Shown one piece after another: positions 36,817 through 55,844 of a stretch of 64,000 nt of DNA; the stretch's first letter is position 1, and every line of letters starts with the position of its first letter. The notes beneath the pieces are model-generated. The model was not told the origin of the DNA. It searched no databases and worked only from the letters and a program-made list of their open reading frames with translations. The position numbers and the translations under genes are program-made. The DNA is from Pseudomonadota bacterium. Lineage in GTDB: Bacteria; Desulfobacterota; Desulfobacteria; Desulfobacterales; JAFDDL01. The stretch spans positions 7,228-71,227 of the forward strand of contig JAZDPP010000187.1 in NCBI GenBank assembly GCA_043797445.1, read 5' to 3'.

Positions 36817-36850
36817 AGCATCCTCCAAATAAATATCATCATTATGGGGT

Positions 36851-36879: not shown

Positions 36880-36934
36880 GAACAATTAGCATATGCTTTA
36901 TGAAAAACCGTAGTTTACGGGGCCGATGACCATG

Positions 36935-38788: not shown

Positions 38789-39348
38789 CATTTTCATGCA
38801 CGGCCTTCATGCCGGTATTATAGCTGAGCGCCGTCTTAAATATCCGTAAAAACAAATTTGAACTGATGGATACGGGTGGGCGCTACATTTTAAAGCCGCA
38901 AAACCCACAGTATCCCCTCCTTCCGGAAAACGAGGACCTCTCCATGCACCTAGCGTCCGCAGCCGGGATAACAGTCCCCCTGCACGGGCTTGTCTATTCA
39001 ATAGACGGTTCCATGACCTACTTTATAAAGCGTTTCGACAGAGTGGGAAAAAACAAGCTCGCCGTGGAGGACTTTTCCCAACTTCTGGGGCTTACCCGGG
39101 AAACGAAATATGATGCCTCTATGGAAAAAATCGCCCATGTGATTGAAACGTACTGCTCCTTTCCGGCGGTTGAGAAAATCAAGCTGTTCCGGCAAACCCT
39201 CGTGAATTTTTTAATCGGCAACGAGGACATGCACCTGAAAAACTTTTCATTGATGACCCTGAATGGCAAAGTGGCACTCACCCCTGCCTATGATATCCTG
39301 AACACAACGCTGGTCCTGTCGGATGCGCGGGAGGAAATCGCCCGATGA
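38775..39348 (+). pseudogene. hipA: Decayed hipA: 24-codon N-terminal stub plus a frame-shifted kinase-core fragment truncated at both ends
   Basis: Stub MRKADIFMHGLHAGIIAERRLKYP* (38775-38849). Fragment 38866-39348 carries GRYILKP, GNEDMHLKNFS and TPAYD, but has no P-loop region and no C-terminal ~100 aa. Confidence 0.7.
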
Positions 39349-39494
39349 CCGTGTGGTGACGCTTGCATTGATCGCCAGCGCATGATAACCGCCCGCTGGG
39401 AAGGTAACCCAATGATTTTTTTTAGAACTGAATGCCTGTTGCGGCGGTTGAAATCGTTCGAAGGCGGGATCTTCAAGAAAAAAGTTAGTAGCGC

Positions 39495-39800
39495 CTATCT
39501 CTCCTTTTTGTAAAAAACCGCTCCGACCCGTTCAATATGATCCAGCAAATCGGAATTGGCGATATGGTGATAAATGGAAAAATCGAATGTATAAGGCAGG
39601 AACAGGTCGTCAATATCCAGGCTGATCCTGTTCAGCAGTTTTAAATCCAGCCCATCACCGGTCAATGCCAGATCGATGTCGGACCCGGGCTTGAAGTTGC
39701 CTTTAGCTCGGGAACCATAGAGGATCGCAGTTTCAACTTCCGGGTGCCGGGCGAACACCCTTTTGATCTTTTCGACCGTTTCTTTTTCCAGGCCATACAT
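39495..39800 (-). CDS. Minimal nucleotidyltransferase (MNT) of an MNT-HEPN pair
   Basis: ILYGSRAKGNFKPGSDIDLAL (GS-x10-DxD). Start placed at ATG 39800, 10 nt after the HEPN stop. Confidence 0.85.
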   Translation of the reverse strand: MYGLEKETVEKIKRVFARHPEVETAILYGSRAKGNFKPGSDIDLALTGDGLDLKLLNRISLDIDDLFLPYTFDFSIYHHIANSDLLDHIERVGAVFYKKER

Positions 39801-39810
39801 GCTATTTTCT

Positions 39811-40236
39811 TTAAAAAGCAACCGGTGCCGTATCCTCGCGCTGACGATCGAGCTTTATTTCCAACTCGTTAAAGAGCCGATGATACGTTTTAACCACCGC
39901 TCGGCAAATCTCATCGGCGGTTTCTTCATTATAGGTATGCGAAGTCAGATTCCTGCTTTTCAGCATGTCCATCCAGCCTTCCCCATCTTGAATCAGCCCC
40001 AATAAAAAGGCCTTTGCAATTGCATCTCTTGAGCCATAAATGTCGGTTTGTCCTTTATATTCGAGGAAATCTTTCACTGTGTTCCAGGCAAGCTCAAAGG
40101 TGTATTCAAATGCTTTTACCAACCCCTGCTTTTCGAGCTCCGACAATTCTCCTTTGTCGATGAACTTTTGAAGCAGACGCAGCGCCTTCCGGTAGTTGGA
40201 AAACCGTTGTTCCCAGCGGATGTCTTTTTTAACCAT
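39811..40236 (-). CDS. HEPN-domain protein (HI0074-type nucleotidyltransferase substrate-binding protein)
   Basis: RWEQRFSNYRKAL...AFEYTFELAWNTVKDFL...SRNLTSHTY (R-x4-H). Start placed at the MVKKDIRWEQ ATG 40236; the longer ORF-track N-terminus has no family features. Confidence 0.85.
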   Translation of the reverse strand: MVKKDIRWEQRFSNYRKALRLLQKFIDKGELSELEKQGLVKAFEYTFELAWNTVKDFLEYKGQTDIYGSRDAIAKAFLLGLIQDGEGWMDMLKSRNLTSHTYNEETADEICRAVVKTYHRLFNELEIKLDRQREDTAPVAF

Positions 40237-40946
40237 TTGGGTAGCCCGCCATTTCTTCGTTAACAACCGCAATGTGCCCACGACGACACGATGGTTTCCG
40301 GCCGAAAGTGATTTCATCGCCAGCATAGACCGAATCGGCAACCATATCATCCAATTCCCTGCACCGGCGGTTAAAAAAAACCCACCATGCGTGCAATTAA
40401 TAGGGATATTTTCGAATTTTTTCAACAAGGAAACCGCGGTTCGCCGGCTGCTATCCCAAAAAGGCGGTTCTTTACAAATTGATGATTCGCTAACCAATTT
40501 GCAAGAAATATTGCATCCATTGGTTTTTGAAGTATATTTTGCGAAGCCGGTCATGTTATTGACAGTCCATCAAAATCGCGAAACAGGATAGCGATCCAAG
40601 CCATAGTTTACCCATTGAATCGTCTGACCATATTTTCGGACCTTTCCTCGACATGTCAAAACTTTGACTTTTTCTTTCCGACACTAAAAGACATATCGTC
40701 CCTCTTTTTGCATATCTTATTTATATTCTTGCATATCTGCATTATTGTCTTTTCTGGCACACAAATTGCTGATATAAAATAGTTAAAATAGATCATATCA
40801 TCAAGAGAATATCCGTTCCAAAAGAGAAGATTCAACTGAGCGGAAGCGGATGTTAAAAAGCCGTTTGCCAAGAATTACCAGCAAAAGCGATTATGAGGCC
40901 CCACATCAAGAGTCGTTGAGGTTAAACAATTGGGAGGATGATTTTC

Positions 40947-41723
40947 ATGAAAATTGTCATTTTATGCGGCGGCCTTGGAACCCGAATTCGTGAAGAAACG
41001 GAGTTCCGACCCAAGCCAATGGTCAATATCGGCCCCAGACCCATCCTGTGGCATATTATGAAAATTTATGCCCACCATGGCTTTAATGACTTCATACTCG
41101 CCTTGGGGTATAAGGGGGATATGATTCGTAATTATTTTTGTCATTATGAGCTCATGAACAATGACATTACCATTGAACTGGGGAAACCGGAGCATCTCTG
41201 CGTTCACCACTGTCATGAAGAGAACGGGTGGCGGATTACCCTGGCAAACACGGGCGAACGATCCCTCAAGGGCGCACGACTAAAACGGTTGGAAAAATAT
41301 ATAACAGAAGATACCTTCATGATGACGTATGGTGATGGCGTTGCGGATGTGGATATCAAAGCACTATTGGCCTTTCATCACCAGCATGGGAAATTAGCCA
41401 CCCTAACCGGGATCAATCCAACGGCACGTTTTGGCAAATTGAAAGTCAACGGTAATCAGGTCGAAGACTTCCGCGAAAAACCAAAAAATGATGAGAGTCT
41501 GGTTAGCGGTGGCTTCTTTGTATTTAACAAAAAAATATTGGAATATCTTACTACAGATGATCTTTGCGACCTGGAGGAAGGGCCGCTTGAACAACTCGCT
41601 GAACAGGGGCAACTGATGGTTTACAAACATACCGGGTTTTGGGCTTGCATGGATACGCTGAGGGATATGGATTATCTCAATGATTTGTGGCAACAAAAAA
41701 AGGCCGGCTGGAGGATATGGTAA
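40947..41723 (+). CDS. rfbF: Glucose-1-phosphate cytidylyltransferase
   Basis: MKIVILCGGLGTRIREETEFRPKPMVNIGPRPILWHIMKIYAHHGFNDFILALGYKG is near-canonical RfbF. ATG lies 9 nt after GGGAGG. Confidence 0.92.
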   Translation: MKIVILCGGLGTRIREETEFRPKPMVNIGPRPILWHIMKIYAHHGFNDFILALGYKGDMIRNYFCHYELMNNDITIELGKPEHLCVHHCHEENGWRITLANTGERSLKGARLKRLEKYITEDTFMMTYGDGVADVDIKALLAFHHQHGKLATLTGINPTARFGKLKVNGNQVEDFREKPKNDESLVSGGFFVFNKKILEYLTTDDLCDLEEGPLEQLAEQGQLMVYKHTGFWACMDTLRDMDYLNDLWQQKKAGWRIW

Positions 41724-42790
41724 CCAACGCATTTTGGGCCAATAAACGGGTCCTTATCACCGGTCATACCGGGTTCAAGGGATCGTGGCTTTCCTTGTGG
41801 CTCCAGCTGTTAGGTGCTGATGTCACGGGCTACTCCCTGCCCCCCCCCACGGTTCCGAGTCTTTACGAACTGAGTCAAGCAAAAGAGGGTATGATTTCCA
41901 TAGAAGGAGATATCCGGGACTTTAGTCGCATCAAAGAATCGATTGAGATTTATCAACCTGAGATTGTCATCCACATGGCGGCCCAGTCACTTGTACGGCC
42001 AGGCTATCAGGACCCCCTGGGAACCTTTTCTACCAACATTATGGGCACGGTTCACCTGCTGGAGGCAGTTCGACAAGCCGACGGAGTGCGCGCAATAATA
42101 AATGTCACCAGTGACAAGTGTTATCAAAACAACGACAGCATCCTGGGCCATATCGAAACGGATGCCCTTGGCGGTTTTGACCCTTACTCGAGCAGCAAGG
42201 GATGCGCCGAGTTAATTACGGCCAGCTATAGAAACTCATTTTTTGAAGCAGGGCAATTAAATCTCCACGGCGTTGCGTTGGCATCCGTCCGAGCCGGGAA
42301 TGTAATCGGTGGAGGAGATTGGGCCAAAGATCGCCTTATTCCGGATATCATGAGAGCGCTCCTTGAAAAGCAGGAAATACGTATCCGGTATCCGGAAGCC
42401 ATTCGGCCCTGGCAGCATGTACTGGAACCGCTTAGCGGATACCTGATCCTTGCTGAAAAGCTTTATCAGGTAGGTCCGGGCTATGCGGAGGCCTGGAACT
42501 TTGGCCCCGACGGTCATGAAAATAGATCCGTATCATGGGTAGCGAAATATATCACTCAATTATGGGGCGGGGAAACCTGCTTGAAGTTAGAGGACATGAA
42601 TCAACCCCATGAAACACGCTGCTTGAAACTCGATAGCTCGAAGGCAAAAAACAGATTGGGATGGGCGCCCCGACTCACAATTGAAGAGGCTTTGAAGTGG
42701 ACGGTTGCCTGGTACAAGGCATATCAAAGAGATCCCGCCACGATAGCTGAGATAACAAGGGCACAAATTAAAGATTACAGCGGGCTATGA
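41717..42790 (+). CDS. rfbG: CDP-glucose 4,6-dehydratase
   Basis: FWANKRVLITGHTGFKGSWLSLWL, YSSSKGCAEL and RAGNVIGGGDW motifs. The start overlaps the rfbF stop. Confidence 0.92.
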   Translation: MVTNAFWANKRVLITGHTGFKGSWLSLWLQLLGADVTGYSLPPPTVPSLYELSQAKEGMISIEGDIRDFSRIKESIEIYQPEIVIHMAAQSLVRPGYQDPLGTFSTNIMGTVHLLEAVRQADGVRAIINVTSDKCYQNNDSILGHIETDALGGFDPYSSSKGCAELITASYRNSFFEAGQLNLHGVALASVRAGNVIGGGDWAKDRLIPDIMRALLEKQEIRIRYPEAIRPWQHVLEPLSGYLILAEKLYQVGPGYAEAWNFGPDGHENRSVSWVAKYITQLWGGETCLKLEDMNQPHETRCLKLDSSKAKNRLGWAPRLTIEEALKWTVAWYKAYQRDPATIAEITRAQIKDYSGL

Positions 42791-42794
42791 GAAC

Positions 42795-44030
42795 ATGAAC
42801 AATAGAATCTGTCGCTTTTGCAGTCACCCTTTGACAAGTCGCTTTGTTGATCTTGGCATGTCCCCCCTGTCTAATTCGTACCTGAAAGCGGAAGACCTGC
42901 ATCGAGTTGAGTCTTTTTATCCGTTACGGGTCTTTGTTTGCGAAACCTGTTTTCTTGTTCAAATAGAAACGAGCGAAAGCCCTGAGCATATTTTTAACGA
43001 GTACGCCTATTTTTCCTCTTATTCCGATACCTGGTTGCAACATGCCAGAGAATACACAGAGAATATGGTTTCTCGGCTGGGGCTGAATTCAAACACAGCC
43101 GTTATTGAAATCGCCAGCAATGACGGTTATCTCCTGCAATATTTTCAAGCAAAAGGGATTCCGGTCCTCGGGATTGAACCGGCCGCCAATGTGGCGGAAA
43201 CTGCGATAAAGAAGGGGATTCCGACGCTGGTTCGTTTCTTTGGTAGAAATCTGGCAGAAGAATTGATCAACCAGGGACGGCAAGCCGATCTCATAGTGGG
43301 AAATAATGTTCTGGCACATGTGCCCGGTTTGAATGACTTCGTTGCCGGAATGAAACTCCTGCTCAAGCCTCGCGGCGTAATTACCATGGAATTTCCCCAT
43401 TTGATGTGTTTAATGGCTCAAAACCAATTTGACACCATTTACCATGAACATATTTTCTATTTTTCATTTCTTACGGCTGAAACCCTGTTTGCCAAACACG
43501 GTTTCATATTGTTTGACGTGGAAACCTTGAAGACGCATGGCGGATCCTTGCGTATCTATGCGCGACACATTGAAGACAACAGCATAAAAGCGACATCCCG
43601 CATAAATGACCTAAGAGAAAAGGAAACCCAATTTGGTTTGGATAGCCTCGAAACCTATATGGATTTTGAAGAAAGAGTAAAAGAAATTAAGCTGAATCTC
43701 CTGGAATTTGTGATTCATGCGAAACGGGAGGGGAAAAACATAGTTGGCTATGGTGCTCCGGCGAAAGGCAACACGCTGCTAAATTATTGTGGTATCGGAA
43801 CCGATTTCATTGATTATACGGTCGATTTAAACCCTCATAAACAGCGTCTCTACCTTCCTGGAACCCATATCCCGATTTATCACCCGGAAAAGATCAAGGA
43901 AACGATGCCGGATTACCTTTTAATTCTACCATGGAACATTAAGGGTGAAATCATGACTCAAATGGATTTTATTCGCAAATGGGGCGGGAAATTTGTTGTG
44001 CCGATTCCAAAGCCTAAGGTGATACCATGA
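42795..44030 (+). CDS. NDP-hexose C-methyltransferase (TylCIII/Methyltransf_13-14 type)
   Basis: N-terminal Zn-ribbon CRFCSHPLTSRFVDLGMSPLSNSY...VCETCFLVQ, followed by a SAM-MT core and the C-terminal C-methyltransferase domain. Confidence 0.8.
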   Translation: MNNRICRFCSHPLTSRFVDLGMSPLSNSYLKAEDLHRVESFYPLRVFVCETCFLVQIETSESPEHIFNEYAYFSSYSDTWLQHAREYTENMVSRLGLNSNTAVIEIASNDGYLLQYFQAKGIPVLGIEPAANVAETAIKKGIPTLVRFFGRNLAEELINQGRQADLIVGNNVLAHVPGLNDFVAGMKLLLKPRGVITMEFPHLMCLMAQNQFDTIYHEHIFYFSFLTAETLFAKHGFILFDVETLKTHGGSLRIYARHIEDNSIKATSRINDLREKETQFGLDSLETYMDFEERVKEIKLNLLEFVIHAKREGKNIVGYGAPAKGNTLLNYCGIGTDFIDYTVDLNPHKQRLYLPGTHIPIYHPEKIKETMPDYLLILPWNIKGEIMTQMDFIRKWGGKFVVPIPKPKVIP

Positions 44031-44578
44031 GGTTTACGGAAACTCGCCTTAAGGGTGCATATCTTATTGAAATTGAACCAATTGAAGATGAACGGGGCTT
44101 CTTCGCTCGAAATTGGTGCCAAAAAGAATTTGCCGCGCATCGATTAAACGCCTCCTTTGTTCAATGCAATTTCTCTTATAATAAAAAAATTGGGACGTTA
44201 CGAGGAATGCATTACCAACGGGGACCGCATGCCGAAATAAAACTGGTAAGCTGTACTGCGGGAGCCATTTATGATGTAATCATTGACTTGCGACAAGAGT
44301 CGTCCACTTTCAGGCAATGGATCGGAGAAGAACTAACCGCTCAAAACCATAAAATGGTCTATATTCCCGAAGGCTTTGCTCATGGTTTTCAAACTCTGAC
44401 GGATCATTGTACTCTACTCTATCTTCATACCGGGTTTTACCAGTCCGATCGTGAGGGACGTATACGATATAATGATCCCGTAATCGGCATTTCGTGGCCG
44501 ATAGAAGTTACCTGTATTTCTGAAAAAGATCTATACCCCCCTTTGCTGTCAGAGAGATTTAAAGGCTTGCTAATATAA
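44027..44578 (+). CDS. RmlC-like NDP-4-keto-6-deoxyhexose 3,5-epimerase (cupin)
   Basis: DERGFFARNW...LRGMHYQ...KLVSCTAGAIYDVIIDLR...VYIPEGFAHGFQTL. Confidence 0.85.
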   Translation: MRFTETRLKGAYLIEIEPIEDERGFFARNWCQKEFAAHRLNASFVQCNFSYNKKIGTLRGMHYQRGPHAEIKLVSCTAGAIYDVIIDLRQESSTFRQWIGEELTAQNHKMVYIPEGFAHGFQTLTDHCTLLYLHTGFYQSDREGRIRYNDPVIGISWPIEVTCISEKDLYPPLLSERFKGLLI

Positions 44579-44617
44579 CGGTAAATTTATTTCGAGCATG
44601 GAGGATATCTCCTTCAA

Positions 44618-45727
44618 ATGGAAAAAACATATTACACAAAGCCCTCAATTACAGAATTAGAAGTAAAATACGCCGTCGATGCGGCAACAAATGGCTGGGG
44701 CGAATCATGCTATGACTATATTTATCGCTTTGAAGATTCATTTAAAAAATACCTCGGGATCAAACATGCCATCGCAACTTCAAGCTGTACGGGTGCATTG
44801 CACATGGGACTCAATGCCATCGGGATAAAACCTGGTGATGAGGTAATACTTGCAGACATTAATTGGATTGCTTCCGCCGCTCCGATTGTCTATTTAGGTG
44901 CAAAGCCGATTTTTGTCGATATTCTGCCGAGTACCTGGTGCATTGATCCGGAAAAAGCCGAAAGCGCCATAACGCGAAACACCAAAGCTATTATCGCCGT
45001 TCATCTATATGGCAATCTCTGCGACATGAAGGCTCTGCTTGCCATTGGAAAACGCCACGGTATTCCCATTATCGAAGATGCTGCCGAGGCTATAGGTTCC
45101 ATATATCATGGTAACCATGCGGGCATTTTAGGCACTTTTGGCACCTTTTCTTTTCATGGCACAAAGACAGTGACGACCGGCGAGGGCGGTATGTTTGTTA
45201 CTCAGGATGATGCGCTGTATGAAAAAGTTCTCACCCTAAGCAATCATGGCCGCGCTTCTGGACATACCAAACAATTTTGGCCGAACATAATAGGATTCAA
45301 ATACAAAATGTCCAATTTGCAAGCAGCCATTGGTTGCGCACAGATGGAACGTATCGATAACCTTATTGCCCGTAAACGGGAAATTTTTTCTTACTATGCT
45401 CAGCACCTTGGCAATTTGCCGCTGACGGTGAATCCCGAATTTGCAGGGACTACCAATGGCTTTTGGATGCCGAGCTTTGTTGTAAACAAAGGAGTTCCCT
45501 TTAATCGATATGCTTTGCTTGATGAATTCAAAAGAAACAATATAGATGGACGCGTGTTCTTCTGGCCCTTAAGTATACTGCCGATGTTTAAGGAAAGACC
45601 GGAAAATGTGATAAGCTACGGACTATATGATCGAGCGGTTAATCTACCCTCTTACCATGATCTCACCGAGTCCGAAATGAATCGAGTCATTAACATAGTA
45701 AAAAGGATCTTCCGTCATGAAGGGTAA
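44618..45727 (+). CDS. DegT/DnrJ/EryC1-family PLP-dependent sugar aminotransferase
   Basis: ATSSCTGALHMGL, IIEDAAEAIGS and SFHGTKTVTTGEGG (catalytic Lys present). Confidence 0.88.
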   Translation: MEKTYYTKPSITELEVKYAVDAATNGWGESCYDYIYRFEDSFKKYLGIKHAIATSSCTGALHMGLNAIGIKPGDEVILADINWIASAAPIVYLGAKPIFVDILPSTWCIDPEKAESAITRNTKAIIAVHLYGNLCDMKALLAIGKRHGIPIIEDAAEAIGSIYHGNHAGILGTFGTFSFHGTKTVTTGEGGMFVTQDDALYEKVLTLSNHGRASGHTKQFWPNIIGFKYKMSNLQAAIGCAQMERIDNLIARKREIFSYYAQHLGNLPLTVNPEFAGTTNGFWMPSFVVNKGVPFNRYALLDEFKRNNIDGRVFFWPLSILPMFKERPENVISYGLYDRAVNLPSYHDLTESEMNRVINIVKRIFRHEG

Positions 45728-46751
45728 ACGAAATCTTCAAGTGATGATTGCCGGCATCGGTGGCGCCTCACTGGGAAGTGAACTTCTTAAATGCTTACTG
45801 CTTGCGGGGCGATATCATGTTTTTGGATGTGATATTTCGCCAACAGCCTATGGCCTTTATGATTCCGGTTTCGACCGCACTTTTCTTGTTGATAGAAATG
45901 GTTATGTTGGCTCGGTAATTAAAGCTTGCCATGATGCGGGTGCACGCTGGCTTATTCCCGGCGGCGAACAACCAATGGTGTTGCTTGGCGAGGCAAATGA
46001 TTTGCTTGAAAAGGCCGGGATCACCCTGGTAGCGAATCGTCCGGAGATAATTCGAACCTTTTCAGATAAGATAGCAACCTTCAACTGTCTGAGAAAAATA
46101 GGGATTTCATTACCGGAAACTGTGGCTGTGTTTTCAATAGCCGACCTGAATCGAATTCGCATGCCATGCGTTGTCAAACCCTCTACCAATTCTGGTGGCA
46201 GTGCCATGGTTTTCTTCGCGGTTGATTATCAGGAAGCGATGATCTACGCGGACTTTATTCAACGCTCGGGAAGTTGCCCGTTAGCTCAAGAATACATCCC
46301 ACCCGACGACGGTGAGTTTACCGTTGGTGTTCTTTCACTTCCAAACAGTGAAATCGTAGGATCTATCGCGTTGCACCGCGCTCTTGACGCAAAGCTGTCC
46401 CTAATGTTTCGCGGGCGAGGTGGGCTGCTGTCCAGCGGCTATTCACAAGGCTATATAGGCGATTTCCCAGCAATTCAGGAACGAGCTGAAACCATCGCCC
46501 ACGCAGTGGGCAGTTGTGGCGCACTGAACATTCAGGGACGTGTATGCAACGGCGAATTCGTTCCATTTGAGATTAATCCCCGTTTTTCCGCATCCGCCTA
46601 CTTGCGGGCCATGGCAGGCTTCAACGAGCCAGACATTTTATTACAACACCTTGCATTTAATGAAACGGTACCGTCCCCCCCCCTGCGTGAGGGGTGGTAC
46701 CTGCGAAGTCTTACTGAACGCTATGTGCCCACCGAGGAGATCCGATCATGA
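45717..46751 (+). CDS. ATP-grasp domain enzyme (probable sugar-amine acyl/aminoacyl ligase)
   Basis: CVVKPSTNSGGSAMVFF...AQEYIP...EFTVGVL...NIQGRVCNGEFVPFEINPRFS resembles the ATP-grasp core. Overlaps both neighbouring genes. Confidence 0.7.
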   Translation: MKGKRNLQVMIAGIGGASLGSELLKCLLLAGRYHVFGCDISPTAYGLYDSGFDRTFLVDRNGYVGSVIKACHDAGARWLIPGGEQPMVLLGEANDLLEKAGITLVANRPEIIRTFSDKIATFNCLRKIGISLPETVAVFSIADLNRIRMPCVVKPSTNSGGSAMVFFAVDYQEAMIYADFIQRSGSCPLAQEYIPPDDGEFTVGVLSLPNSEIVGSIALHRALDAKLSLMFRGRGGLLSSGYSQGYIGDFPAIQERAETIAHAVGSCGALNIQGRVCNGEFVPFEINPRFSASAYLRAMAGFNEPDILLQHLAFNETVPSPPLREGWYLRSLTERYVPTEEIRS

Positions 46752-47983
46752 TTCTCTGGATCACCGAAAAACTTGGAACAGGTCCTGCGTCCGATCCATC
46801 CATAACGGATAGCATGGTCGTACTGGATGTTCGTGACCTTGTTGATAAGTTCGGCAATTCAGCAGCCGCCACTTTGCAGCTAATCGAGCAAGGGATTAAC
46901 CAGTTGAAACTGGGAAAAAAGGTTGTTGTCTGTTGTGACTACGGCCTATCCAGAAGCAACGCCATAGCGGCTGGAATTCTTTCCCGCTATAAGGGCATCT
47001 CATTAGACCAGGCAATAAAGGAGATCATTCATTCTATCGGCGCTCAAGATATCAAGTTAGAACCGCTTCGGTCCGTCCGAGCTGCCTTGCAAGATGGGAT
47101 TGAAAGCCTTTCGGAGAATGAGCTGCGGGTTTTGCTGACGGGTGGAACGGGGTTCATAGGGCAAACGTTGTTGCCAGTGCTATCAAAGCGCCATTATACA
47201 TTCGCGCCATCGCGAAATGAGATGGATATAGCAGCCAGTGCCATGGCACTCGATTTGATAGTAAAAGAAAAGCGGATTAATTGTATTATCCATTTAGCGA
47301 ACCCTCGCGTATACACCTCCAATCCAGCTATTGGCGAAACGTTGATATTGTTGCGCAATGTTCTTGATGTGTGCAGAGAGAATAGCATTCGGCTGATATA
47401 TCCTTCCAGCTGGGAAGTGTACTCAGCCTATCGAACACCCGAGCTTATCGCAAATGAAAGCCTTCCGCTGTTACCGAAAGGACCATATGGAGAAACCAAA
47501 ATGCTATGTGAAAATCTTATAACACACCATTGCCGGTTATATGGCCTTAAATGTGGACTTCTCAGATCATCACCCCTATATGGCAAAGCCAGTGACCGAC
47601 CGAAGTTCATCTATAATTTTATTAATAAAGCAAGAAATAACGAGCATATCAAAACGCATCGTTATCTCAATGGCGATCCGAAACTTGATTTGCTTCATGT
47701 AGACGATTTTGTTTCCGCAGTAGTAGCTGCAGTTGAAACAAATTTTATGGGTGTTTTGAATATCGGCGCCGGACTGGCGATCAGTACCCGGGAAGTCGCG
47801 GAATGGATTGTGAACAGAACGAATTCCAAAAGTACCGTTGATTTTCAACTTATTGAAGATTACGCTTCCAATATAACAATGGACATCACGTCAGCACACA
47901 AGACCCTCGCGTGGCAACCCACAGTATCGTGGAAAGCCGGAATAGGCCAATTACTCGAAAACGCCGCGAATCGATTAGTATAA
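46748..47983 (+). CDS. Fusion: dual-specificity-phosphatase-like CX5R domain plus NAD-dependent SDR epimerase/reductase
   Basis: N-terminal VVVCCDYGLSRSNAIAAGILSRYKGISLDQAIKEI fits the (H)C-x2-G-x-S-R-S...A-Y-L pattern. C-terminal VLLTGGTGFIGQTL Rossmann fold and PYGETK (YxxxK). Confidence 0.7.
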   Translation: MILWITEKLGTGPASDPSITDSMVVLDVRDLVDKFGNSAAATLQLIEQGINQLKLGKKVVVCCDYGLSRSNAIAAGILSRYKGISLDQAIKEIIHSIGAQDIKLEPLRSVRAALQDGIESLSENELRVLLTGGTGFIGQTLLPVLSKRHYTFAPSRNEMDIAASAMALDLIVKEKRINCIIHLANPRVYTSNPAIGETLILLRNVLDVCRENSIRLIYPSSWEVYSAYRTPELIANESLPLLPKGPYGETKMLCENLITHHCRLYGLKCGLLRSSPLYGKASDRPKFIYNFINKARNNEHIKTHRYLNGDPKLDLLHVDDFVSAVVAAVETNFMGVLNIGAGLAISTREVAEWIVNRTNSKSTVDFQLIEDYASNITMDITSAHKTLAWQPTVSWKAGIGQLLENAANRLV

Positions 47984-48020
47984 AATAGAGGATTATTCTA
48001 AAAGCGGTAGGAGGTCAAAT

Positions 48021-49808
48021 ATGCGGAAAGCGGCGTTTCATAGGTCAATTCAAAAAGTATTACTAATTAACCCCTTTAATACCATATGCGCATACAATCC
48101 AGAAGACATACTATCGAAGGGAGTTGAACTTCATCCCCCTCTCGGTTTGAGCTATATCTCTTCGTATTTTAGAGAAAATAATCCCGATATAAAAATTGAC
48201 ATTTTTGACGCCCACGGTATGGCGATTAAAATATGTTTAAAGGAGAAAATGGTTTGTATGCCTGCGTTGTGGCAAAAGCTAAAAGAAGAAATTGCAGATT
48301 ACGGACCAGATATAATCGGCATTTCGTGCTTGTTCCATACAACTGCAGCGTCAGCTCATAAAACTGCATCAATTGCAAAGTCAATTGACCCAACTAGTTA
48401 TACCGCAATTGGGGGGAATTACGCTCACACATGCTATAATGAGGTACTGAAAGATCCTTATATCGATTTTGTTGTGTTTTCCGAGGGAGAGCTCACTTTT
48501 TCAAATTTGGTTAATGGAATTAATCAAAAAGCCGACCTACAAACGATAAAGGGGATCGCCTTCAGAACTGAAATGGCAAATATTGTGAAAACAGATAGTC
48601 AAAATTTGATTCCGGACATAGACAATATACCCGAATGCGATCGCTCAAGTTTTGATATTGATTTTTATTCCAGACAAGGTCGCTATTTTACTTCCAGATT
48701 TTTAGACCGTGATTCGACCCGAATAACTACACTTGTAGCTTCTAGAGGGTGCCCGCACCAGTGCACTTTCTGTTCAGCACGGCTTTTGTGGGGAGGAAAG
48801 ATCCGATATCGGAATCCTTCCATTGTTGTCGACGAAATGTTACATTTGAGGGATCAATTTGGAATTAATACCTTTTATTTCGTCGATGACAACATGTTCG
48901 CAATTGGGCGAAATATTATTGCATTGGCAGACGAAATCCGTAAAAGAATTCCCGGCATAATTTGGGTGAGTCTCGGTGGTATGCAGATATCGGCTCTCAA
49001 AACGGAAGTGGTTCAGTCTGTTTATGAAAGCGGATGCAAATATTTCATTCTTCCGATAGAATCAGGAAATCCCCAAACTCTTAAAATAATTCAGAAACCT
49101 CATACAGTAGAAATGGCAGGGAAAGCCATAGAAACTATTAGAAAATTTAAAGATACTTGGATCGCAGCTAACATTATTACAGGATTTCCATTTGAGTCAA
49201 AAGCAGACATATCAAACACTCTTGATTATGCTAAAACACTTGATTTAGATTGGGTATACTTTTTCGGATATACACCATTGCCTGAAACGCAGATGTACAA
49301 AGACTGCTTGAATGCGGGGTGGATTCAAAAATTTACCTGGCATTCCGACAATCCAGGATCACTTTCTGCTTTAAACACGCCGAATTTCGACTCGAATTAT
49401 ATCGCTGAACAAAATTATGCGGCAAATTTAGATCACAATTTCTTGAAGAACCGAAACATACGATTACGGCCAATTCAGGCGATCAGAGATTTTCAATACG
49501 TATTGGCAACAACCAAAAATCATGCATTAGCAATGTGGGGAATCGGTAGTTCGTATCAGGAAATAAAAGCATATAAGGAATCGGAAAAATGGTTTTTGAG
49601 GGCTTTGAATATTATTGAATCTGAAAATGGTGCATACAAAGCAGATGATAATGCGGATGATTCCACAGGAAGGAGTATCAGCAAAAGCTTTTTTGTGGTG
49701 AAAAAGACAAAATATCTCCAATATTTCCAAAATGCCGGGATCGATCTACTTAAGTGTATAGAGAAAGTCCGCCAAAAAGCTGATCATTCACAAACAGTTT
49801 TGAATTAA
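48021..49808 (+). CDS. B12-binding-domain radical SAM enzyme with C-terminal TPR-like tail
   Basis: N-terminal cobalamin-binding-like region, radical SAM CPHQCTFCS (CX3CX2C), and a C-terminal helical WGIGSSYQEIKAYKESEKWFLRAL. Confidence 0.8.
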   Translation: MRKAAFHRSIQKVLLINPFNTICAYNPEDILSKGVELHPPLGLSYISSYFRENNPDIKIDIFDAHGMAIKICLKEKMVCMPALWQKLKEEIADYGPDIIGISCLFHTTAASAHKTASIAKSIDPTSYTAIGGNYAHTCYNEVLKDPYIDFVVFSEGELTFSNLVNGINQKADLQTIKGIAFRTEMANIVKTDSQNLIPDIDNIPECDRSSFDIDFYSRQGRYFTSRFLDRDSTRITTLVASRGCPHQCTFCSARLLWGGKIRYRNPSIVVDEMLHLRDQFGINTFYFVDDNMFAIGRNIIALADEIRKRIPGIIWVSLGGMQISALKTEVVQSVYESGCKYFILPIESGNPQTLKIIQKPHTVEMAGKAIETIRKFKDTWIAANIITGFPFESKADISNTLDYAKTLDLDWVYFFGYTPLPETQMYKDCLNAGWIQKFTWHSDNPGSLSALNTPNFDSNYIAEQNYAANLDHNFLKNRNIRLRPIQAIRDFQYVLATTKNHALAMWGIGSSYQEIKAYKESEKWFLRALNIIESENGAYKADDNADDSTGRSISKSFFVVKKTKYLQYFQNAGIDLLKCIEKVRQKADHSQTVLN

Positions 49809-49847
49809 GCGCATTTAATTAATCTATTTCATTGTAAGGAGTATATT

Positions 49848-50699
49848 ATGAGCGATCCCGCCTCCGAGTTTTGTCTTGAGGTTGAAAGCAATATAACGCG
49901 GCTAGGCCAGGATTATTCACTAAGACAATTAACCTTGTCCTGGATGAAGGCAACAAATCGGTATAAGTATACATACAATTTTTCTTGTATGGGCAGACCG
50001 ATTATTCAATGTCCTCAGGACATGATCGAAATACAGGAACTGATTTGGCGAATAAAACCTGATCTAATAATTGAAACCGGCATTGCACATGGTGGGTCAC
50101 TCATTATGAGCGCTTCGATGTTGGCATTAATAGACTATTCCGATGCGATTGAATCAAGGAAAATCCTCGATCCGAGAATAACGTGCCGTCGTGTGATAGG
50201 AATTGACATTGACATTCGTGAACACAACCGGGCTGCCATTGAGGCGCATCCGATGTCTCACAGAATTGATATGATTCAGGGATCATCTATTGCCCCAGAG
50301 ATTATCGCACGTGTGCACGAATTAGCCAGAGGGTATGAACGGGTAATGGTCTGTCTGGATTCGAACCACACGCATGAGCATGTATTGGCCGAACTCGAAG
50401 CTTATGCACCGCTGACCAGCAAAGGAAGCTATTGTGTTGTGTTCGATACTTTAATTGAAGACTTGCCTGAGGGATCTTTTCCAGAGCGCCCCTGGGACAA
50501 GGGCAATAACCCTAAAACTGCCGTTTGGGAATACCTGCGGCGCCTAAAAGAGGAGGGACGCAAAGCATCCGATGGAACTTCGCTTTTTTACGAGATCGAC
50601 ATGTTAATAGCGAACAAGCTTCTTATCACCGTTGCACCGGATGGTTATTTAAGGCGAATCGACCAGCCTCTTGTTCAACTCCAAAAACATCTGACTTAA
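49848..50699 (+). CDS. CmcI/cephalosporin-hydroxylase-family SAM methyltransferase
   Basis: MGRPIIQCPQDMIEIQELIWRIKPDLIIETGIAHGGSLIMSASML is characteristic of the CmcI family. Confidence 0.8.
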   Translation: MSDPASEFCLEVESNITRLGQDYSLRQLTLSWMKATNRYKYTYNFSCMGRPIIQCPQDMIEIQELIWRIKPDLIIETGIAHGGSLIMSASMLALIDYSDAIESRKILDPRITCRRVIGIDIDIREHNRAAIEAHPMSHRIDMIQGSSIAPEIIARVHELARGYERVMVCLDSNHTHEHVLAELEAYAPLTSKGSYCVVFDTLIEDLPEGSFPERPWDKGNNPKTAVWEYLRRLKEEGRKASDGTSLFYEIDMLIANKLLITVAPDGYLRRIDQPLVQLQKHLT

Positions 50700-50775: not shown

Positions 50776-53700
50776 ATGAGCATTTCAAAATTTCAAAAAC
50801 GGCCGGTCATCATTTACGGAGAGGAAATGAACCTTAAAGCACAACTTATCGCTGCGGAGCAGAATTTAAGGAATCGCAGATTTGAGGAGGCCGAGGCCAT
50901 ATGTCACAAGATTATAGAAGTCATGCCAGAAAACATTGAGGCTGCCTTTTTACTCGGCTCTTCTCATTTAAAACGATTAAACTACAGCGAAAGCAGGAGA
51001 ATATTTGAGAATATTCTCAATAGGCACCCAGATCATTTGAATGTCAATAATGATTTGGGAGTAATTTATCTGAAAAATAAAGAATTTGCCTTAGCTGAAA
51101 AATGCTTCAGAAAAGTGATTGAAATTGATCCTTTCCACGTAAATGCTCTGATCAATCTTGGCAATATTTGTTTTAATTTCAATCAATTGGAATCTGCCGA
51201 ATCTTTGTACAAAAAAGCCCTTGCGCTGGATCATGCTAATGGGGCGATCCTGAACAATCTTGGACAAATACTGATTAAGCAGAACCGAATGGCGGATTGG
51301 GTGGTTTTGATGAAGGAAGTATTCAATCAATCCATACCGGGTCCAGAAATGTTTATTGCATACCTCGAAGCAAAACGAATATGTCAATGGGATATGCTTG
51401 AAACAGCCAGCGCCCGCATTGTGGATATTATTATGGATGGGAAAATATGTGGCGCTGATATTACATTGTTAAATCTGGCGATGCTGTCTGATCCGAATAT
51501 TGACAATGAAACCCTTTTTAAAATCGTCTGCAAAACTGCGGATGATTTCGAGAAACTTTGTTCGTCAAGATCATTCGGGAATTACGAAAAAGCCATTCGG
51601 GCCTTGCAGATTGGTCAGAAGATGCGGATCGGGTATCTCTCCGGAGATTTTTGTCTCCATGTTTGCAGTCATTTTTTGCGGAGCCTGATTAATTATTACG
51701 ACAGGGATCACTTTGAAATATTTTGTTACTCAAATACCCTTGTAGAAGACAATATAACCAATCTTTATAAGTCAAATGTGGATGCGTTTATCGATATCCG
51801 GAATCTGTCGGATTTGCAGCTTGCAGCGCGGATTCACGATGATGGTATTCACATTTTGGTGGATCTTTCAGGATATACTTTCGGCAGCAGAATTTCCGTT
51901 ATGAGCTACTGCGCAGCACCAGTGCAGATCACATACATGGGATACCCTTTCTCAAGCGGATTTCGCTCTATTGACTATATCATTTCGGATTCGTTTCTTG
52001 ACGGCCCTTTAAATTTTAAATATTGCACGGAAAAAGCGCTGTGCCTACCTGAAGCCTGTGCGGCTTTTGGTGCTCTCTTTGAGGAAGAAATAAATCCTGT
52101 TCCGCCGTTTGAACGATACGGGTTTGTCACCTTTGGTTCTCTTTTAAATACATACAAACTGAACCCTATTGTCATCCAGGTATGGAGCCGGATATTAACA
52201 CGGACGCCAGGCACAAGGTTAATTCTGAATCATCCGAATTACGAACCGGAAATTACCAGGCAAAATGTCTTAAAAGAATTTGCTAAACACGGCATCTCTG
52301 CAAAACGTCTGCATTTTATCTGGGAAAAACTTACGGATTCCAGACACCTGCTTTACTATAACGACATAGACATCGCCTTGGACAGCTTTCCCATGACAGG
52401 CGGGCAAACAACGATTGATGCGCTTTGGATGGGAGTTCCGGTAGTGACTTGGGTGGGAGAAACCCATCATCAAAGAGGTTCCTTTATGATGCTCAAGAAT
52501 CTCAATACCAAGGTAGAAGACCTTGTAGCTTTTAGTCAAGAGGAATACATCCAAAAGGCCGTTGCACTCGCTAACAACCCTGCCAGGATGACTGAACTTC
52601 ATCAAATGATCCCCGAGTATTTGAGTCGCTCGATTCTCTGTGACCCTCAGCGCTTTGCGGGACAACTGGAATTAGCCTATATCGAGGCTTGGAACAATAA
52701 ATTTCCGGAAACTCGATACGCCCCGGAGATATGTCACGACACCGTGGAATTTGTCTCCATTCGAGGCGGCGCGAAAATTGCGGTTTCAGGTCTAATTTAT
52801 GAAAGATTCACCTACATTTTAAAAGAACAGCAAGGATGGTTTGATCCCGAGTATGACTTCGTCCTTGAAATGGTTCAGCCGGATATGCGTGTGATCGACA
52901 TTGTTTCAGGCGTTGGCGAATATGCGATCCCTTTGGCAAAAAAAATGATGGAAGGCGGAATGGTTTGGGCCATTTCAACCGATCCATCTCATGCGAGATA
53001 CCTGCTTAAAGGCAAAAACCACAACCATCTTGGCTCCCTGCAACTTCTGGAAAATTTCCGAATAGGCAATATTGACCTTGACAGGAACATGATGCGCAAC
53101 GATTGGTCGAACATCCATTTTGTTCGAATAAACACCGAAGGAGTTGAGCAGGGCTTAATCCGAAGGGGGGCGAAATTCTTTTCTCTGTCATCTCCGCTCG
53201 TTATGTTTGGAATCAAAAACAAGAGTCAGAGGGTCCTTTCGCTCGCAACGCAGTTTAAAGAACTGAGATACGAATCTTTTAGACTCATCCCCGGTCTCAA
53301 TTTGCTGGTGCCTTTTGATCCCGCCAATGAGATCGATGATCTCGACGAGTTTTCCACACACCTGTTTTGCTGCAAAAAAGATCGAGCCGAACAGCTTGAA
53401 AATCGCGGTCTTCTGATACAAAAATCCCCGTCCGCAGCCAAATATCCCGATTATGATGCATCTGTCTTACAGCAATACCTGGCAAATCTGCCATATGCCG
53501 ATGGCATAATGACGCATTGGATGAATATTTCTTCCCACCATAAGGGCTGGGAAACATATCTGCAAGCGCTGAGTCTCTTTGCAGTTGCAAAAACAAAAAA
53601 TCAGAATGCATCCCTCCGGTATGCCTGTATTCAGGAATCATTTTTCCTGTTGCGGAATCTCCTTAAGAATCAGGCAAACGTTTCACGCGTTTTGTCCATG

Positions 53701-54063
53701 GCCAGGGTCCTTACGGAAATGGGCAAACGCGCCCTTGCAGTGAATGTTTTGGACCATCTTGCAGAATTTCTTGAAACCGGCGAGGGCGGTATTGTAATGA
53801 GTATTGATGAGCCCTTTCTCTCTTTATCCGACCAACTCTCCACCATGAATCCGGGGGACAGGATTGCGGAATGGATTTATGCATCAATCCTGGAGCAACG
53901 GACAAGGCTGAGGGCCTTTTCATCTTATTATACCGGTAAAGAGTCGTTGAAAATTTTGAATAAAATAGAAGATCTCGGTTTTTTAAGCGGCGAAATGAAA
54001 AGACGCCGGCAGCTTATTCGAATGCGTTATCATATGGAAGCCGCTTCGAACGTTCCTCTTTAG
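50776..54063 (+). CDS. Multidomain TPR - GT41 (OGT/SPINDLY-like) glycosyltransferase - FkbM-type methyltransferase protein; probable flagellin glycosyltransferase (FlmG-like)
   Basis: N-terminal TPRs. RIGYLSGDFCLHVCSHFL...ILVDLSGYTFGSR...ITYMGYPFSSG is GT41-like. DIVSGVGEYAIPLA...IHFVRINTEG is FkbM-like. Lies directly upstream of fliC. An alternative start is at 50827. Confidence 0.7.
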   Translation: MSISKFQKRPVIIYGEEMNLKAQLIAAEQNLRNRRFEEAEAICHKIIEVMPENIEAAFLLGSSHLKRLNYSESRRIFENILNRHPDHLNVNNDLGVIYLKNKEFALAEKCFRKVIEIDPFHVNALINLGNICFNFNQLESAESLYKKALALDHANGAILNNLGQILIKQNRMADWVVLMKEVFNQSIPGPEMFIAYLEAKRICQWDMLETASARIVDIIMDGKICGADITLLNLAMLSDPNIDNETLFKIVCKTADDFEKLCSSRSFGNYEKAIRALQIGQKMRIGYLSGDFCLHVCSHFLRSLINYYDRDHFEIFCYSNTLVEDNITNLYKSNVDAFIDIRNLSDLQLAARIHDDGIHILVDLSGYTFGSRISVMSYCAAPVQITYMGYPFSSGFRSIDYIISDSFLDGPLNFKYCTEKALCLPEACAAFGALFEEEINPVPPFERYGFVTFGSLLNTYKLNPIVIQVWSRILTRTPGTRLILNHPNYEPEITRQNVLKEFAKHGISAKRLHFIWEKLTDSRHLLYYNDIDIALDSFPMTGGQTTIDALWMGVPVVTWVGETHHQRGSFMMLKNLNTKVEDLVAFSQEEYIQKAVALANNPARMTELHQMIPEYLSRSILCDPQRFAGQLELAYIEAWNNKFPETRYAPEICHDTVEFVSIRGGAKIAVSGLIYERFTYILKEQQGWFDPEYDFVLEMVQPDMRVIDIVSGVGEYAIPLAKKMMEGGMVWAISTDPSHARYLLKGKNHNHLGSLQLLENFRIGNIDLDRNMMRNDWSNIHFVRINTEGVEQGLIRRGAKFFSLSSPLVMFGIKNKSQRVLSLATQFKELRYESFRLIPGLNLLVPFDPANEIDDLDEFSTHLFCCKKDRAEQLENRGLLIQKSPSAAKYPDYDASVLQQYLANLPYADGIMTHWMNISSHHKGWETYLQALSLFAVAKTKNQNASLRYACIQESFFLLRNLLKNQANVSRVLSMARVLTEMGKRALAVNVLDHLAEFLETGEGGIVMSIDEPFLSLSDQLSTMNPGDRIAEWIYASILEQRTRLRAFSSYYTGKESLKILNKIEDLGFLSGEMKRRRQLIRMRYHMEAASNVPL

Positions 54064-54101: not shown

Positions 54102-54129
54102 TAAAGTTCCAGGAAATGGGGTCCGATAG
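54102..54129 (+). promoter_or_regulatory. Sigma-28 (FliA)-type promoter candidate for fliC
   Basis: TAAAGTTC-N12-TCCGATAG against the consensus TAAAGTTT-N11-GCCGATAA. Confidence 0.55.
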
Positions 54130-54311: not shown

Positions 54312-55844
54312 ATGGCTCTGTCAATCAACACTAATTTAGCATCATTGAACGCCCAGAGAAATCTTGGAAAAACACAAGGTGCGTTAAATAACTCTTTGCA
54401 AAGACTTTCATCCGGCCTTCGTGTCAACAGTGCAAAGGATGACGCTGCGGGTCTTGCGATTTCAAACAGAATGGGCTCACAGGTCCGCGGTCTCAATCAA
54501 GCTTCACGAAACGCTAACGACGGCATCTCTCTGGCGCAGACCGCTGAAGGCGCGATGCAGGAGGTTACCAACAACTTGCAACGTATTCGAGAGCTCGCGG
54601 TTCAGGCCGCCAACGACACCAACTCCGCCAGTGACAGGGCGTCGCTGAACGATGAAGCGACTCAGTTGGTAGCAGAAATCGAACGCGTTGCCACAACGAC
54701 ATCTTTCAATGGTAAAGTCCTGCTGGATGGCTCCTTCGGATCTGCGTCCTTTCAGGTGGGAGCCGATCAAGGAGAGCAGATTTCGTTTGGTATGATCAGC
54801 GTCAGATCTTCTGCTTTGGGCGTGGGCTCGGGCTCGAGTTATAGCAAAAGCGTAGCGGGCACTGAGGTCCAAACCACGGCTCTTGTATCAGGGGCCGTCA
54901 CCATCAATGGGCATCAAGTTGGCGCAGCCGCCGCCGATGGTGTTTCTGTTAATGGAACTTTAACTCTTGATACAAGCACAACTCTCGATTCAAAAGCCAG
55001 CGGGATAGCTGTTGCCGACGCGATCAATGCTATTTCAGGGGATACAGGGGTTACAGCTACGGTAAGCGCGACAACCGTTACAGGAACGACTGTAGTTGCT
55101 TCCGCAGGTGCGGCGGGAGGGTATAATACTGCAATCACCGCAGGTTCCGTATTGATTAATGGGGTGTCAATTGGCGCAATTTCAGCAAGCACAGGCGCTG
55201 TTGATCGTGGCGCCGATGTCGCAGCCGCCATTAATGCCATTACCAGTCAAACCGGTGTTACCGCAACCTTTAACACTACCACGGGTGCGGTGGGATTGAC
55301 CGCCGCGGATGGCCGAAATATCACTATCGAAAAAAGTGCCAATGCCGGTGCGGATGACACGTCTACCGGCCTTACAACTGGTATTGCTACTGTTACCCTC
55401 GGCAGTGATACCACTCGCTCAAAAGTTACCTTATCTTCGACCTCTTCTGCAGGCATCACGATAGGTGGCTCTGCGGAAGCCAATGCGGGACTTACGGCTG
55501 GCTATTCGGCAGCTACCGTATCTGCAGGTGCAGGTGTCTCCTCTCTTGATCTTACCACCTCCGGTAACGCCGGAAATGCTATCACCATAGTCGATGCGGC
55601 TCTTGCCACCATCGACTCCGCTCGAGGGGAACTCGGCGCCATCCAGAACCGGTTCGAATCCACCATCGCGAACCTGCAAAATGTCGCTGAAAACGTAACT
55701 GCTGCTCGTTCCCGAATTGTAGACGCGGACTTTGCATCTGAAACGGCGTCAATGACCAGATCCCAAGTAATGCAGCAAGCGGGCGTTGCCATGTTGGCCC
55801 AGGCCAATCAGCTCCCGCAAGCGGTGCTCAGCTTGCTTCAGTAG
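54312..55844 (+). CDS. fliC: Flagellin
   Basis: Conserved N-terminus [18 protein letters not shown]...[24 protein letters not shown] and C-terminus [15 protein letters not shown]...[14 protein letters not shown]. Central Thr/Ser/Ala/Gly-rich region with two IN motifs. Confidence 0.97.

Follow-up and report, generated by a model that had tools for sequence, protein, structure and literature searches.

Flagellin glycans shape motility, filament stability, and host and phage recognition, and most of the known chemistry comes from a few pathogens. N-acylated, O-methylated 4-amino-4,6-dideoxyhexoses are known from the flagellin glycans of Pseudomonas and Burkholderia; the modified viosamine on the flagellin of Pseudomonas syringae and Burkholderia cenocepacia, like anthrose, is N-acylated and sometimes 2-O-methylated. 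Here, a 64,000-nucleotide stretch of contig JAZDPP010000187.1 (GenBank assembly GCA_043797445.1, positions 7,228 to 71,227 of the forward strand; hereafter the window) was analyzed for a block of ten genes, g1-g10, that lies directly before the flagellin gene fliC. The locus was interpreted, with moderate confidence, as a flagellin O-glycosylation island in the genome of an uncultured, Geobacter-like member of the Desulfobacterota. The viosamine and anthrose systems share its logic (4,6-dehydratase, then C4 aminotransferase, N-acylation and O-methylation), but their sugars are activated with deoxythymidine diphosphate (dTDP), have the D-gluco configuration and are not C-methylated, and other types of acylating enzyme and other glycosyltransferases are used.

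Two further sugars were compared with the product predicted here. Vinelose, as its cytidine diphosphate (CDP) derivative, is known from Azotobacter vinelandii (6-deoxy-3-C-methyl-2-O-methyl-L-talose), and N-acylkansosamine from Mycobacterium kansasii (4-amino-4,6-dideoxy-3-C-methyl-2-O-methyl-L-mannose); we know of no genes assigned to vinelose. PMC4403928 mentions kansosamine. The predicted product resembles both as a CDP-linked 3-C-methyl, O-methyl L-series 6-deoxyhexose, kansosamine being the 4-N-acylamino analogue; kansosamine, however, sits in a glycolipid and not on flagellin, and the identity of the product here is a prediction.

Enterobacterial flagellin glycosylation islands (FGIs) commonly contain a SPINDLY-type glycosyltransferase of family GT41, nearly always fused to a methyltransferase, and FGI type 23 carries the genes for CDP-4-keto-6-deoxyglucose; those islands are genomic predictions only (De Maayer and Cowan, 2016; PMC4875605). 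The window island is like them in its variable block of sugar and methyltransferase genes by fliC, in its GT41-methyltransferase fusion and, for one of their types, in starting from CDP-glucose (PMC4875605). It differs in belonging to another phylum (Desulfobacterota-like) and in a much longer pathway, which adds a 3-C-methyltransferase, a C4 aminotransferase, an ATP-grasp ligase paired with a fusion of a Cys-phosphatase to a short-chain dehydrogenase/reductase (SDR), and a B12-dependent radical S-adenosylmethionine (SAM) enzyme. The island architecture is already a known kind and the enzyme set is the new part. A first-pass annotation, made by a model from the sequence alone, had called the glycan unusual; this was toned down for the type of island, as GT41-methyltransferase islands with CDP-4-keto-6-deoxyglucose genes occur in Enterobacteriaceae (PMC4875605).

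For the transferase itself, the nearest described proteins are Caulobacter FlmG, an experimentally established flagellin glycosyltransferase with tetratricopeptide repeats (TPR) and a GT-B domain that transfers pseudaminic acid from a cytidine monophosphate (CMP) donor (PMC7591256), and Arabidopsis SPINDLY, the closest solved GT41 structure, which transfers fucose from guanosine diphosphate (GDP)-fucose to nuclear protein targets (PMC9715652). Both share with g10 an N-terminal TPR region for substrate binding and a C-terminal GT-B domain, with Ser/Thr modified in the cytoplasm, but they have no fused methyltransferase and no CDP donor.

The gene block, its flagellar context and alternative readings

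Nine intact open reading frames (ORFs), g1-g9, were found on the + strand within 40947-50699, followed by g10 and fliC (Table 1). The enzyme assignments that the first-pass annotation had given to the nine genes, all placed on one strand, were borne out by domain content and curated family scores, and the GT41-like protein and fliC that it had placed after them were confirmed downstream. Its description of the stops and starts as mostly overlapping was slightly overstated: 4 of the 8 junctions overlap (g1/g2, g3/g4, g5/g6 and g6/g7), and the remaining 4 are gaps of 4-39 nt. The start of g1 was set at ATG 40947, because a ribosome-binding site (GGGAGG) precedes it by 9 nt and the family alignment begins at the same point. 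For g2, ATG 41717 is the likely start and overlaps the stop of g1 (ATGGTAA); the mechanical ORF begins at GTG 41687. The start of g10 is 50776, or 50827 in the source's gene call. G+C content was 37-50% in the block vs. 50-55% in the flanks. The arrangement is not due to chance, because the block keeps its synteny in more than 10 unrelated loci.

Table 1. Positions and assignments of the block genes, three flagellar genes and a candidate promoter (numbered from the first letter of the window)
Feature	Position	Strand	Assignment	Basis
g1	40947..41723	+	glucose-1-phosphate cytidylyltransferase (RfbF/DdhA type)	TIGR02623 equivalog 355 bits, cutoff 300
g2	41717..42790	+	CDP-glucose 4,6-dehydratase (RfbG/DdhB type)	TIGR02622 equivalog 489 bits, cutoff 278
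g3	42795..44030	+	nucleoside diphosphate (NDP)-hexose 3-C-methyltransferase, TylC3/TcaB9/MtmC family	Pfam domains and solved-structure matches
g4	44027..44578	+	RmlC-type NDP-4-keto-6-deoxyhexose epimerase	PF00908 E 4.6e-63; TIGR01221 (rmlC) 177 bits, cutoff 156
g5	44618..45727	+	pyridoxal phosphate (PLP)-dependent sugar C4 aminotransferase, perosamine-synthase-like	DegT family E 1e-119
g6	45717..46751	+	ATP-grasp ligase, presumed N-acylating	NF009402 301 bits, cutoff 218; Pfam ATP-grasp_3 and ATPgrasp_Ter
g7	46748..47983	+	fusion of Cys-phosphatase (dual-specificity/protein tyrosine phosphatase (DSP/PTP) fold, residues 1-120) and extended SDR (residues 126-404)	
g8	48021..49808	+	cobalamin-dependent (class B) radical SAM enzyme, presumed C-methylase	B12-binding PF02310 and Radical_SAM PF04055
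g9	49848..50699	+	CmcI/rhamnosyl-O-methyltransferase-family methyltransferase	PF04989 E 1.7e-89
g10	50776..54063	+	TPR-GT41 (SPINDLY/OGT-like)-class I methyltransferase-helical domain protein; presumed flagellin glycosyltransferase	TPR and PF13844
Sigma-28-like promoter	54102..54129	+	TAAAGTTC-N12-TCCGATAG, ~185 nt before fliC start	consensus match only
fliC	54312..55844	+	flagellin, 510 aa	flagellin NCBIfam models E 2.4e-138
fliD	56156-57568	+		NF005955
fliS	57686-58135	+		TIGR00208

The flagellin link rests on, and is supported by, gene context, and glycosylation of this FliC is predicted. The block g1-g10 ends 249 nt before fliC, with motAB on one side and fliD, fliS, flaG, fliW, flgL and flgK on the other. 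The GT41 protein g10, sole glycosyltransferase in the window, was resolved into TPR (residues ~30-190), a GT41 domain (283-641), a class I SAM-methyltransferase fold (~655-880) and a helical C-terminal domain; the first-pass annotation had recognized the GT41-like protein and missed the fused methyltransferase. For residues 283-641, the best solved match was Arabidopsis SPINDLY (7y4i, an O-fucosyltransferase; E 4.5e-71), with O-GlcNAc transferases (OGTs) next. The C-terminal 455 aa were modeled with AlphaFold2 (AF2) at a mean confidence (pLDDT) of 89.7, and the SAM-methyltransferase fold was recognized by Foldseek. FliC is supported as acceptor because Ser and Thr make up 30% of its core (residues 171-430), vs. 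15-18% in the termini. Two similar 19-residue segments lie at about residues 225-330 of this 30% Ser/Thr region and are candidate glycosylation repeats.

Contigs around the closest homologues of the g10 GT41 (50-74% identity) were inspected. GT41 orthologues adjoin fliC and fliD in all four relatives with a recovered flank (L011/L012, 70%; L014, 53%; L047-L049, 50%), and a further contig (L013, GT41 66%) ends in the first residues of a flagellin gene. A CmcI gene is directly upstream of GT41 in 5/5 related islands, L013 included, and the genes farther upstream of CmcI differ between islands. The L047 island (4128-9968; also L048-L050) has a cytidylyltransferase 71% identical to g1 (TIGR02623, 338 bits), a CDP-glucose 4,6-dehydratase (TIGR02622, 442 bits), RmlC, a 3-C-methyltransferase (57%), a hexapeptide acetyltransferase, a 271-aa SDR and CmcI; no glycosyltransferase other than GT41 was found in it. 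By its gene content, this island would encode what a CDP-vinelose-type sugar needs, a vinelose-like, non-aminated pathway. L014 has g1, g2, g4, g3, g5 (68% identity), a class I methyltransferase and CmcI, in gene calls that are fragmented, possibly by long-read assembly error. Two independent islands, L014 and L047, therefore have similar gene sets beside fliC, each with CDP-glucose genes, a 3-C-methyltransferase, an epimerase and CmcI. That three independent GT41-fliC islands encode CDP-glucose-derived 3-C-methyl sugars is the strongest argument that GT41 uses such a donor. The choice of flagellin modification over O-antigen in the first-pass annotation is likewise supported by context, GT41 orthologues adjoining fliC in the four relatives.

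The cassette was also traced outside flagellar loci, from the contigs of g8 and g7 homologues and a metagenome scan with g7, and a tblastn table was made over 46 loci. Related cassettes occur in about 30 loci at 45-75% protein identity, including the cultured Devosia alba and metagenome-assembled genomes (MAGs) of Phycisphaerae. The order g1-g2-g3/g4-g5-g6-g7-(methyltransferase)-g9 was seen in at least 10 of them (L001, L007, L010, L015, L017, L019, L025, L026, L029 and L030). In Devosia alba (L017, a cultured isolate; assembly GCA_039938915.1), an identical g1-g7 order stands in an O-antigen-like locus with an initiating GT4-family transferase, an ABC transporter, GT11, GT1, GT2 and GT4. A Phycisphaerae MAG (L007) has GT2, a Wzx-like flippase and a PMT/GT-C transferase; GT2 was found at L010, Wzx at L001, L002 and L016, and GT87, GtrA and GT2 at L015. 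Export or initiating-transferase genes are beside homologous cassettes in L001, L002, L005, L007, L016 and L017. Co-conservation with lipopolysaccharide (LPS) or capsule export genes elsewhere, which the first-pass annotation had named as half of what would tell against flagellin, was therefore found, in Devosia alba, Phycisphaerae and others. Because it is co-conserved elsewhere with polysaccharide assembly genes, the cassette is a portable sugar module and not specific to flagellin. We propose that this module, used by other phyla for polysaccharides, was here joined to the lineage's conserved CmcI-GT41-fliC core; the locus would then represent a polysaccharide sugar cassette moved onto flagellin and would extend GT41-type flagellin islands to the anaerobic Desulfobacterota. 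The common cassette is present in the cultured Devosia alba, which makes its chemistry accessible to experiment.

Several points weigh against a flagellin sugar made by this block. GT41 or flagellin was found at none of the other cassettes that contain g6/g7, and their annotated flanks hold Wzx, ABC-transporter, GT2, GT4, GT-C or GtrA genes. The adjacency to fliC could reflect insertion into a recombination hot spot, with mobile or defence-like genes just upstream. Upstream of GT41 in L011/L013 (66-70%), the genes are different (several radical SAM, GT1 and methyltransferase genes, with no CDP genes within 10 kb), so the donor specificity of GT41 need not follow the cassette, its closest orthologues having different upstream genes. 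We know of no GT41 enzyme that uses a CDP-sugar. What g6, g7 and g8 do, the sequence in which the enzymes act and every stereochemical assignment are inferred here.

As for the donor, GT41 might use a housekeeping donor (uridine diphosphate (UDP)-GlcNAc, or a GDP- or dTDP-deoxyhexose), with methylation by its own domain and by CmcI, and the CDP-sugar might be a second residue or not on flagellin at all. This was judged unlikely: the window has no second glycosyltransferase, and the CDP pathway is again the sole sugar pathway beside GT41 in L047 and L014, even though the characterized GT41 enzymes use UDP-GlcNAc, UDP-glucose or GDP-fucose, and even though in L011 and L013 the genes upstream of GT41 (66-70% identity) are quite different, CmcI being its constant partner. 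Flexibility of the GT41 donor is argued because the catalytic domain is closest to SPINDLY, a user of a 6-deoxy-L-hexose donor (GDP-fucose). No GT41 enzyme using a CDP donor was found described in the literature.

As for the destination of the sugar, it might serve a surface polysaccharide or lipid-linked glycan whose transferases and exporters are encoded elsewhere, the position by fliC being an insertion accident in a variable region. The polysaccharide flanks of the about 30 related cassettes, none of them near GT41 or fliC, point in that direction, as do the low G+C of the block and the selfish or defence-like genes that precede it. Wzx, Wzy, ABC-transporter and initiating-transferase genes were found nowhere in the 64-kb window, however, nor was any polymerase gene, so that what the first-pass annotation had said of Wzx/Wzy, Wzm/Wzt and the initiating transferase holds over its whole length; it thus has neither the export system nor the initiating transferase of an O-antigen or capsule cluster. 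Moreover, the cassette, CmcI and GT41 share one strand in a tight head-to-tail arrangement, and two other GT41-fliC islands independently have CDP-glucose/3-C-methyl pathways, with GT41 the sole glycosyltransferase in L047. A polysaccharide destination was accordingly rated as quite improbable. That the island is a relic, acquired recently, unexpressed or decaying and now without function, has very little probability, as its atypical G+C and the fragmented calls of the related L014 (which may be long-read assembly error) are set against ten full-length ORFs with catalytic motifs kept and with start/stop overlaps and ribosome-binding sites preserved.

For the proposed flagellin O-glycosylation island, control of expression was examined by a sigma-28 pattern scan. 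Two matches were found in the window, a count that chance could give (19/100 shuffles reach 2). The sole good match in the island region precedes fliC (Table 1), and none was found by the scan ahead of g1. With no comparable sigma-28 motif before g1, class III flagellar control may not extend to the glycosylation genes.

Predicted pathway

The pathway would begin with conversion of glucose-1-phosphate and CTP to CDP-glucose by g1 and of CDP-glucose to CDP-4-keto-6-deoxyglucose by g2. Both predicted steps are well founded, and the CDP-glucose entry named in the first-pass annotation holds, with TIGR02623 and TIGR02622 both over their curated cutoffs. The Pfam domains of g3 (Zn-binding Methyltransf_13, Methyltransf_23 and C-terminal Methyltransf_14) make up the three-domain architecture of sugar C-methyltransferases, and g3 aligned full length to MtmC (4rv9, 2.5e-83), KijD1 and TcaB9 (E 2.5e-83 to 8e-66). 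From its family and the closest characterized enzymes, g3 is predicted to methylate C3, beside the 4-keto group, with C5 as the other candidate position. Many homologues of g3 were found on plasmids; the one examined belongs to an unrelated exopolysaccharide (EPS) cluster. By family and solved structures, g4 would then epimerize the intermediate to an L-series sugar; it would invert only C5, because C3 is quaternary after methylation.

Transamination of the 4-keto to a 4-amino group is predicted for g5, again from family and solved structures. The catalytic Lys is kept and the motif FHGTKTVTTGEGG (FHGTK) is present. The best solved structure was GDP-perosamine synthase (3bn1, E 1.8e-80), and the E1 dehydrase matched at only 5.6e-34. 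An E1-type dehydrase role for g5 was rejected on these two grounds, the catalytic Lys and the much stronger perosamine synthase match. The domain scan found neither E1 (a pyridoxamine phosphate (PMP)-dependent 3-dehydrase) nor E3 reductase in the block, g5 being its only DegT-family gene. A CDP-3,6-dideoxyhexose pathway (rfbF/G/H/I, ddhABCD) was likewise rejected: the cytidylyltransferase and 4,6-dehydratase are present, but the E1 and E3 that it requires are not. The first-pass annotation had already called this branch absent, and the kept Schiff-base Lys of g5 and the lack of an E3-like gene in the block agree.

The later steps are less directly predicted. As gene order and co-occurrence suggest, g6 would acylate the 4-amino group, the acyl donor being a carboxylic acid or an amino acid, and g7 would process the product. 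By family, g8 may place a methyl group on an unactivated carbon and g9 may O-methylate a sugar hydroxyl; no solved structure matched g9 (CmcI) by sequence. From its context, the TPR region of g10 would bind flagellin in the cytoplasm, and the CDP-sugar would be transferred to Ser/Thr of the central domain of FliC before export, with one further methyl group added by the fused methyltransferase domain. The expected product is an N-acyl-4-amino-4,6-dideoxy-3-C-methyl-O-methyl-L-hexose, related to N-acylkansosamine and vinelose.

The g6/g7 pair and g8

The main interest of the locus lies in three uncharacterized enzymes, the ATP-grasp ligase (g6), the Cys-phosphatase-SDR fusion (g7) and the B12-radical SAM enzyme (g8). 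The N-terminal domain of g7 contains the P-loop signature CX5R(S) (VCCDYGLSRS), in which C63, R69 and S70 were invariant in 47 homologues, as were the SDR residues GxxGxxG, S220, Y247 and K251. As candidate general acids, D27 and D33 are invariant and D30 nearly so. The AF2 model of this domain (pLDDT 88.9) gave Tk-PTP, MKP5 and dual-specificity phosphatases (DUSPs) as top Foldseek matches (TM 0.6-0.72, ~15% identity), and its score against Pfam DSPc was 23.8, below the cutoff of 33.5. A rhodanese fold, as annotated in one homologue, was rejected on the PTP/DSP fold given by Foldseek. The SDR part matched UDP-GlcNAc 4-epimerase (3m2p, E 1.5e-18). A 4-ketoreductase role was also rejected, as C4 is aminated and the SDR part is just 23% identical to the small SDR in the reductase position of L047.

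An exhaustive search of 1.84 billion representative proteins found the g7 phosphatase domain in only 263 clusters, and overall the domain defines about 180-260 clusters (50% identity) in bacteria and archaea. Full-length members were almost all 400-430 aa, with the domain N-terminal and nearly always fused to an SDR. The phosphatase-SDR fusion appears to be obligate, because in full-length members the domain occurs almost only as the N-terminal part of a fusion of ~410 aa. Named homologues of g7 came from Methanosarcinales, Bathyarchaeia, Halomonas, Devosia, Oxalobacteraceae, Blastocatellia and Fibromonadales; no plasmid homologue of the fusion was found.

The g6 gene was directly upstream of a g7 homologue in 29/29 loci with both visible, in bacteria and archaea, and the two were seen only where a DegT-type aminotransferase gene was also visible on the contig. 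Neither is present in the L047 island, which is non-aminated, nor in L014, which is aminated but simpler. ATP-grasp plus Cys-phosphatase-SDR looks like an uncharacterized two-gene sugar-tailoring module, and the literature search did not find it described. ATP-grasp enzymes typically form amide bonds. From this chemistry, the co-occurrence with DegT and the absence from non-aminated L047 (and also from aminated L014), we infer that g6 N-acylates the 4-amino sugar.

In the Campylobacter jejuni capsule, the ATP-grasp amide ligase Cj1438 makes a sugar amide with a phosphorylated partner and the phosphatase Cj1435 removes the phosphate. This pair, ATP-grasp amide formation followed by dephosphorylation, was taken as a model for g6/g7, likened by logic. 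In Campylobacter the sugar gives the carboxylate and the phosphatase is of the haloacid dehalogenase (HAD) type, whereas in the window the amine would come from the sugar and the phosphatase domain, joined to an SDR, has a Cys-dependent PTP fold. By this analogy, the acid might be phosphorylated, the g7 phosphatase might remove the phosphate after ligation, and the SDR might oxidize or epimerize the product; this scheme is speculative and rather doubtful.

For g8, the cysteines of CxxxCxxC (C244, C248 and C251) were invariant among homologues, and similarity to TokK, CysS, AprD4 and BchE-type enzymes was weak. Some class B radical SAM members are not methylases. Methylation of an unactivated carbon is predicted and probable for g8. 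The family is rare, with a best homologue 73% identical. An exact-sequence look-up of g8 gave no protein record, and a scan of a genome collection with the radical SAM profile gave 4 loci only, none of them from the window's own genome. In the commoner cassette, the slot between g7 and CmcI holds a class I methyltransferase gene (UbiG/NodS-like, ~0.8 kb; annotated in L015 at 11303-12091 and in L017 at 11227-12033), and in the window, L007 and L010 it holds the B12-radical SAM gene. This suggests two alternative methylation chemistries on the same intermediate. The other B12-type loci also have a SPASM radical SAM gene, which the window does not.

Taken jointly, three proposals were made, tentatively and at no better than a modest chance of all being right: that g10 is a protein O-glycosyltransferase with a CDP-6-deoxy-L-hexose donor, a new GT41 donor class; that ATP-grasp/Cys-phosphatase-SDR is a cross-phylum module for tailoring 4-amino sugars by phospho-acid amide ligation, dephosphorylation and redox; and that in this variant the module may be combined with B12-radical SAM C-methylation of the nucleotide sugar or acyl group, giving an undescribed flagellin sugar. 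A full-text literature search found no paper that places a cobalamin radical SAM enzyme in a flagellin glycosylation island, and searches on ATP-grasp or radical SAM in flagellin glycosylation islands, and on vinelose, gave nothing useful.

Other features of the window

A patch of selfish or defence-like genes occupies 34464-40554, between motAB and the island: AAA-ATPase_like with PDDEXK_9 (553 aa), AAA_14 with DUF4143 (415 aa), a HipA C-terminal fragment (160 aa) and a HepT-like nucleotidyltransferase (NTase) substrate-binding protein (247 aa). The L014 island is likewise flanked by an MNT/HepT pair and AAA-ATPase_like/PDDEXK_9 genes, which suggests an insertion hot spot shared by the two islands. 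No DNA match was found when the block was compared by megablast with all complete E. coli genomes, no public sequencing run containing the region was found, and an Rfam scan of the window gave no RNA element, such as a cobalamin riboswitch.

A 181-aa ORF without a family match (58452-58997) lies between fliS and flaG, a common site of fliT-like chaperones. At the other end of the window, 1-20239 holds what looks like a complete type VI secretion cluster (TssA, B, C, F, G, ClpV, VgrG and DUF4123). Two of its members are unusual, a protein that joins TPR to a class I methyltransferase (14451-15866) and a VipA/VipB-like fusion of 520 aa (15871-17433). Proteins at least 90% identical to its TssC came from MAGs labelled Deltaproteobacteria bacterium and Geobacter sp., so the source is probably an anaerobic member of the Desulfobacterota, in keeping with its B12-radical SAM enzyme. 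The cluster is followed at 20736-25090 by FHA, PP2C and Ser/Thr-kinase regulators. Near the motor genes, 25355-31478 encodes three unusual envelope proteins: a 648-aa AhpC/TSA-TPR-FlgT_C/CsgG-like protein, a 164-aa FlgO/LpoB-like lipoprotein, and a protein of 819 aa whose N terminus is CsgG-like and which has ten MopE copper-binding motifs.

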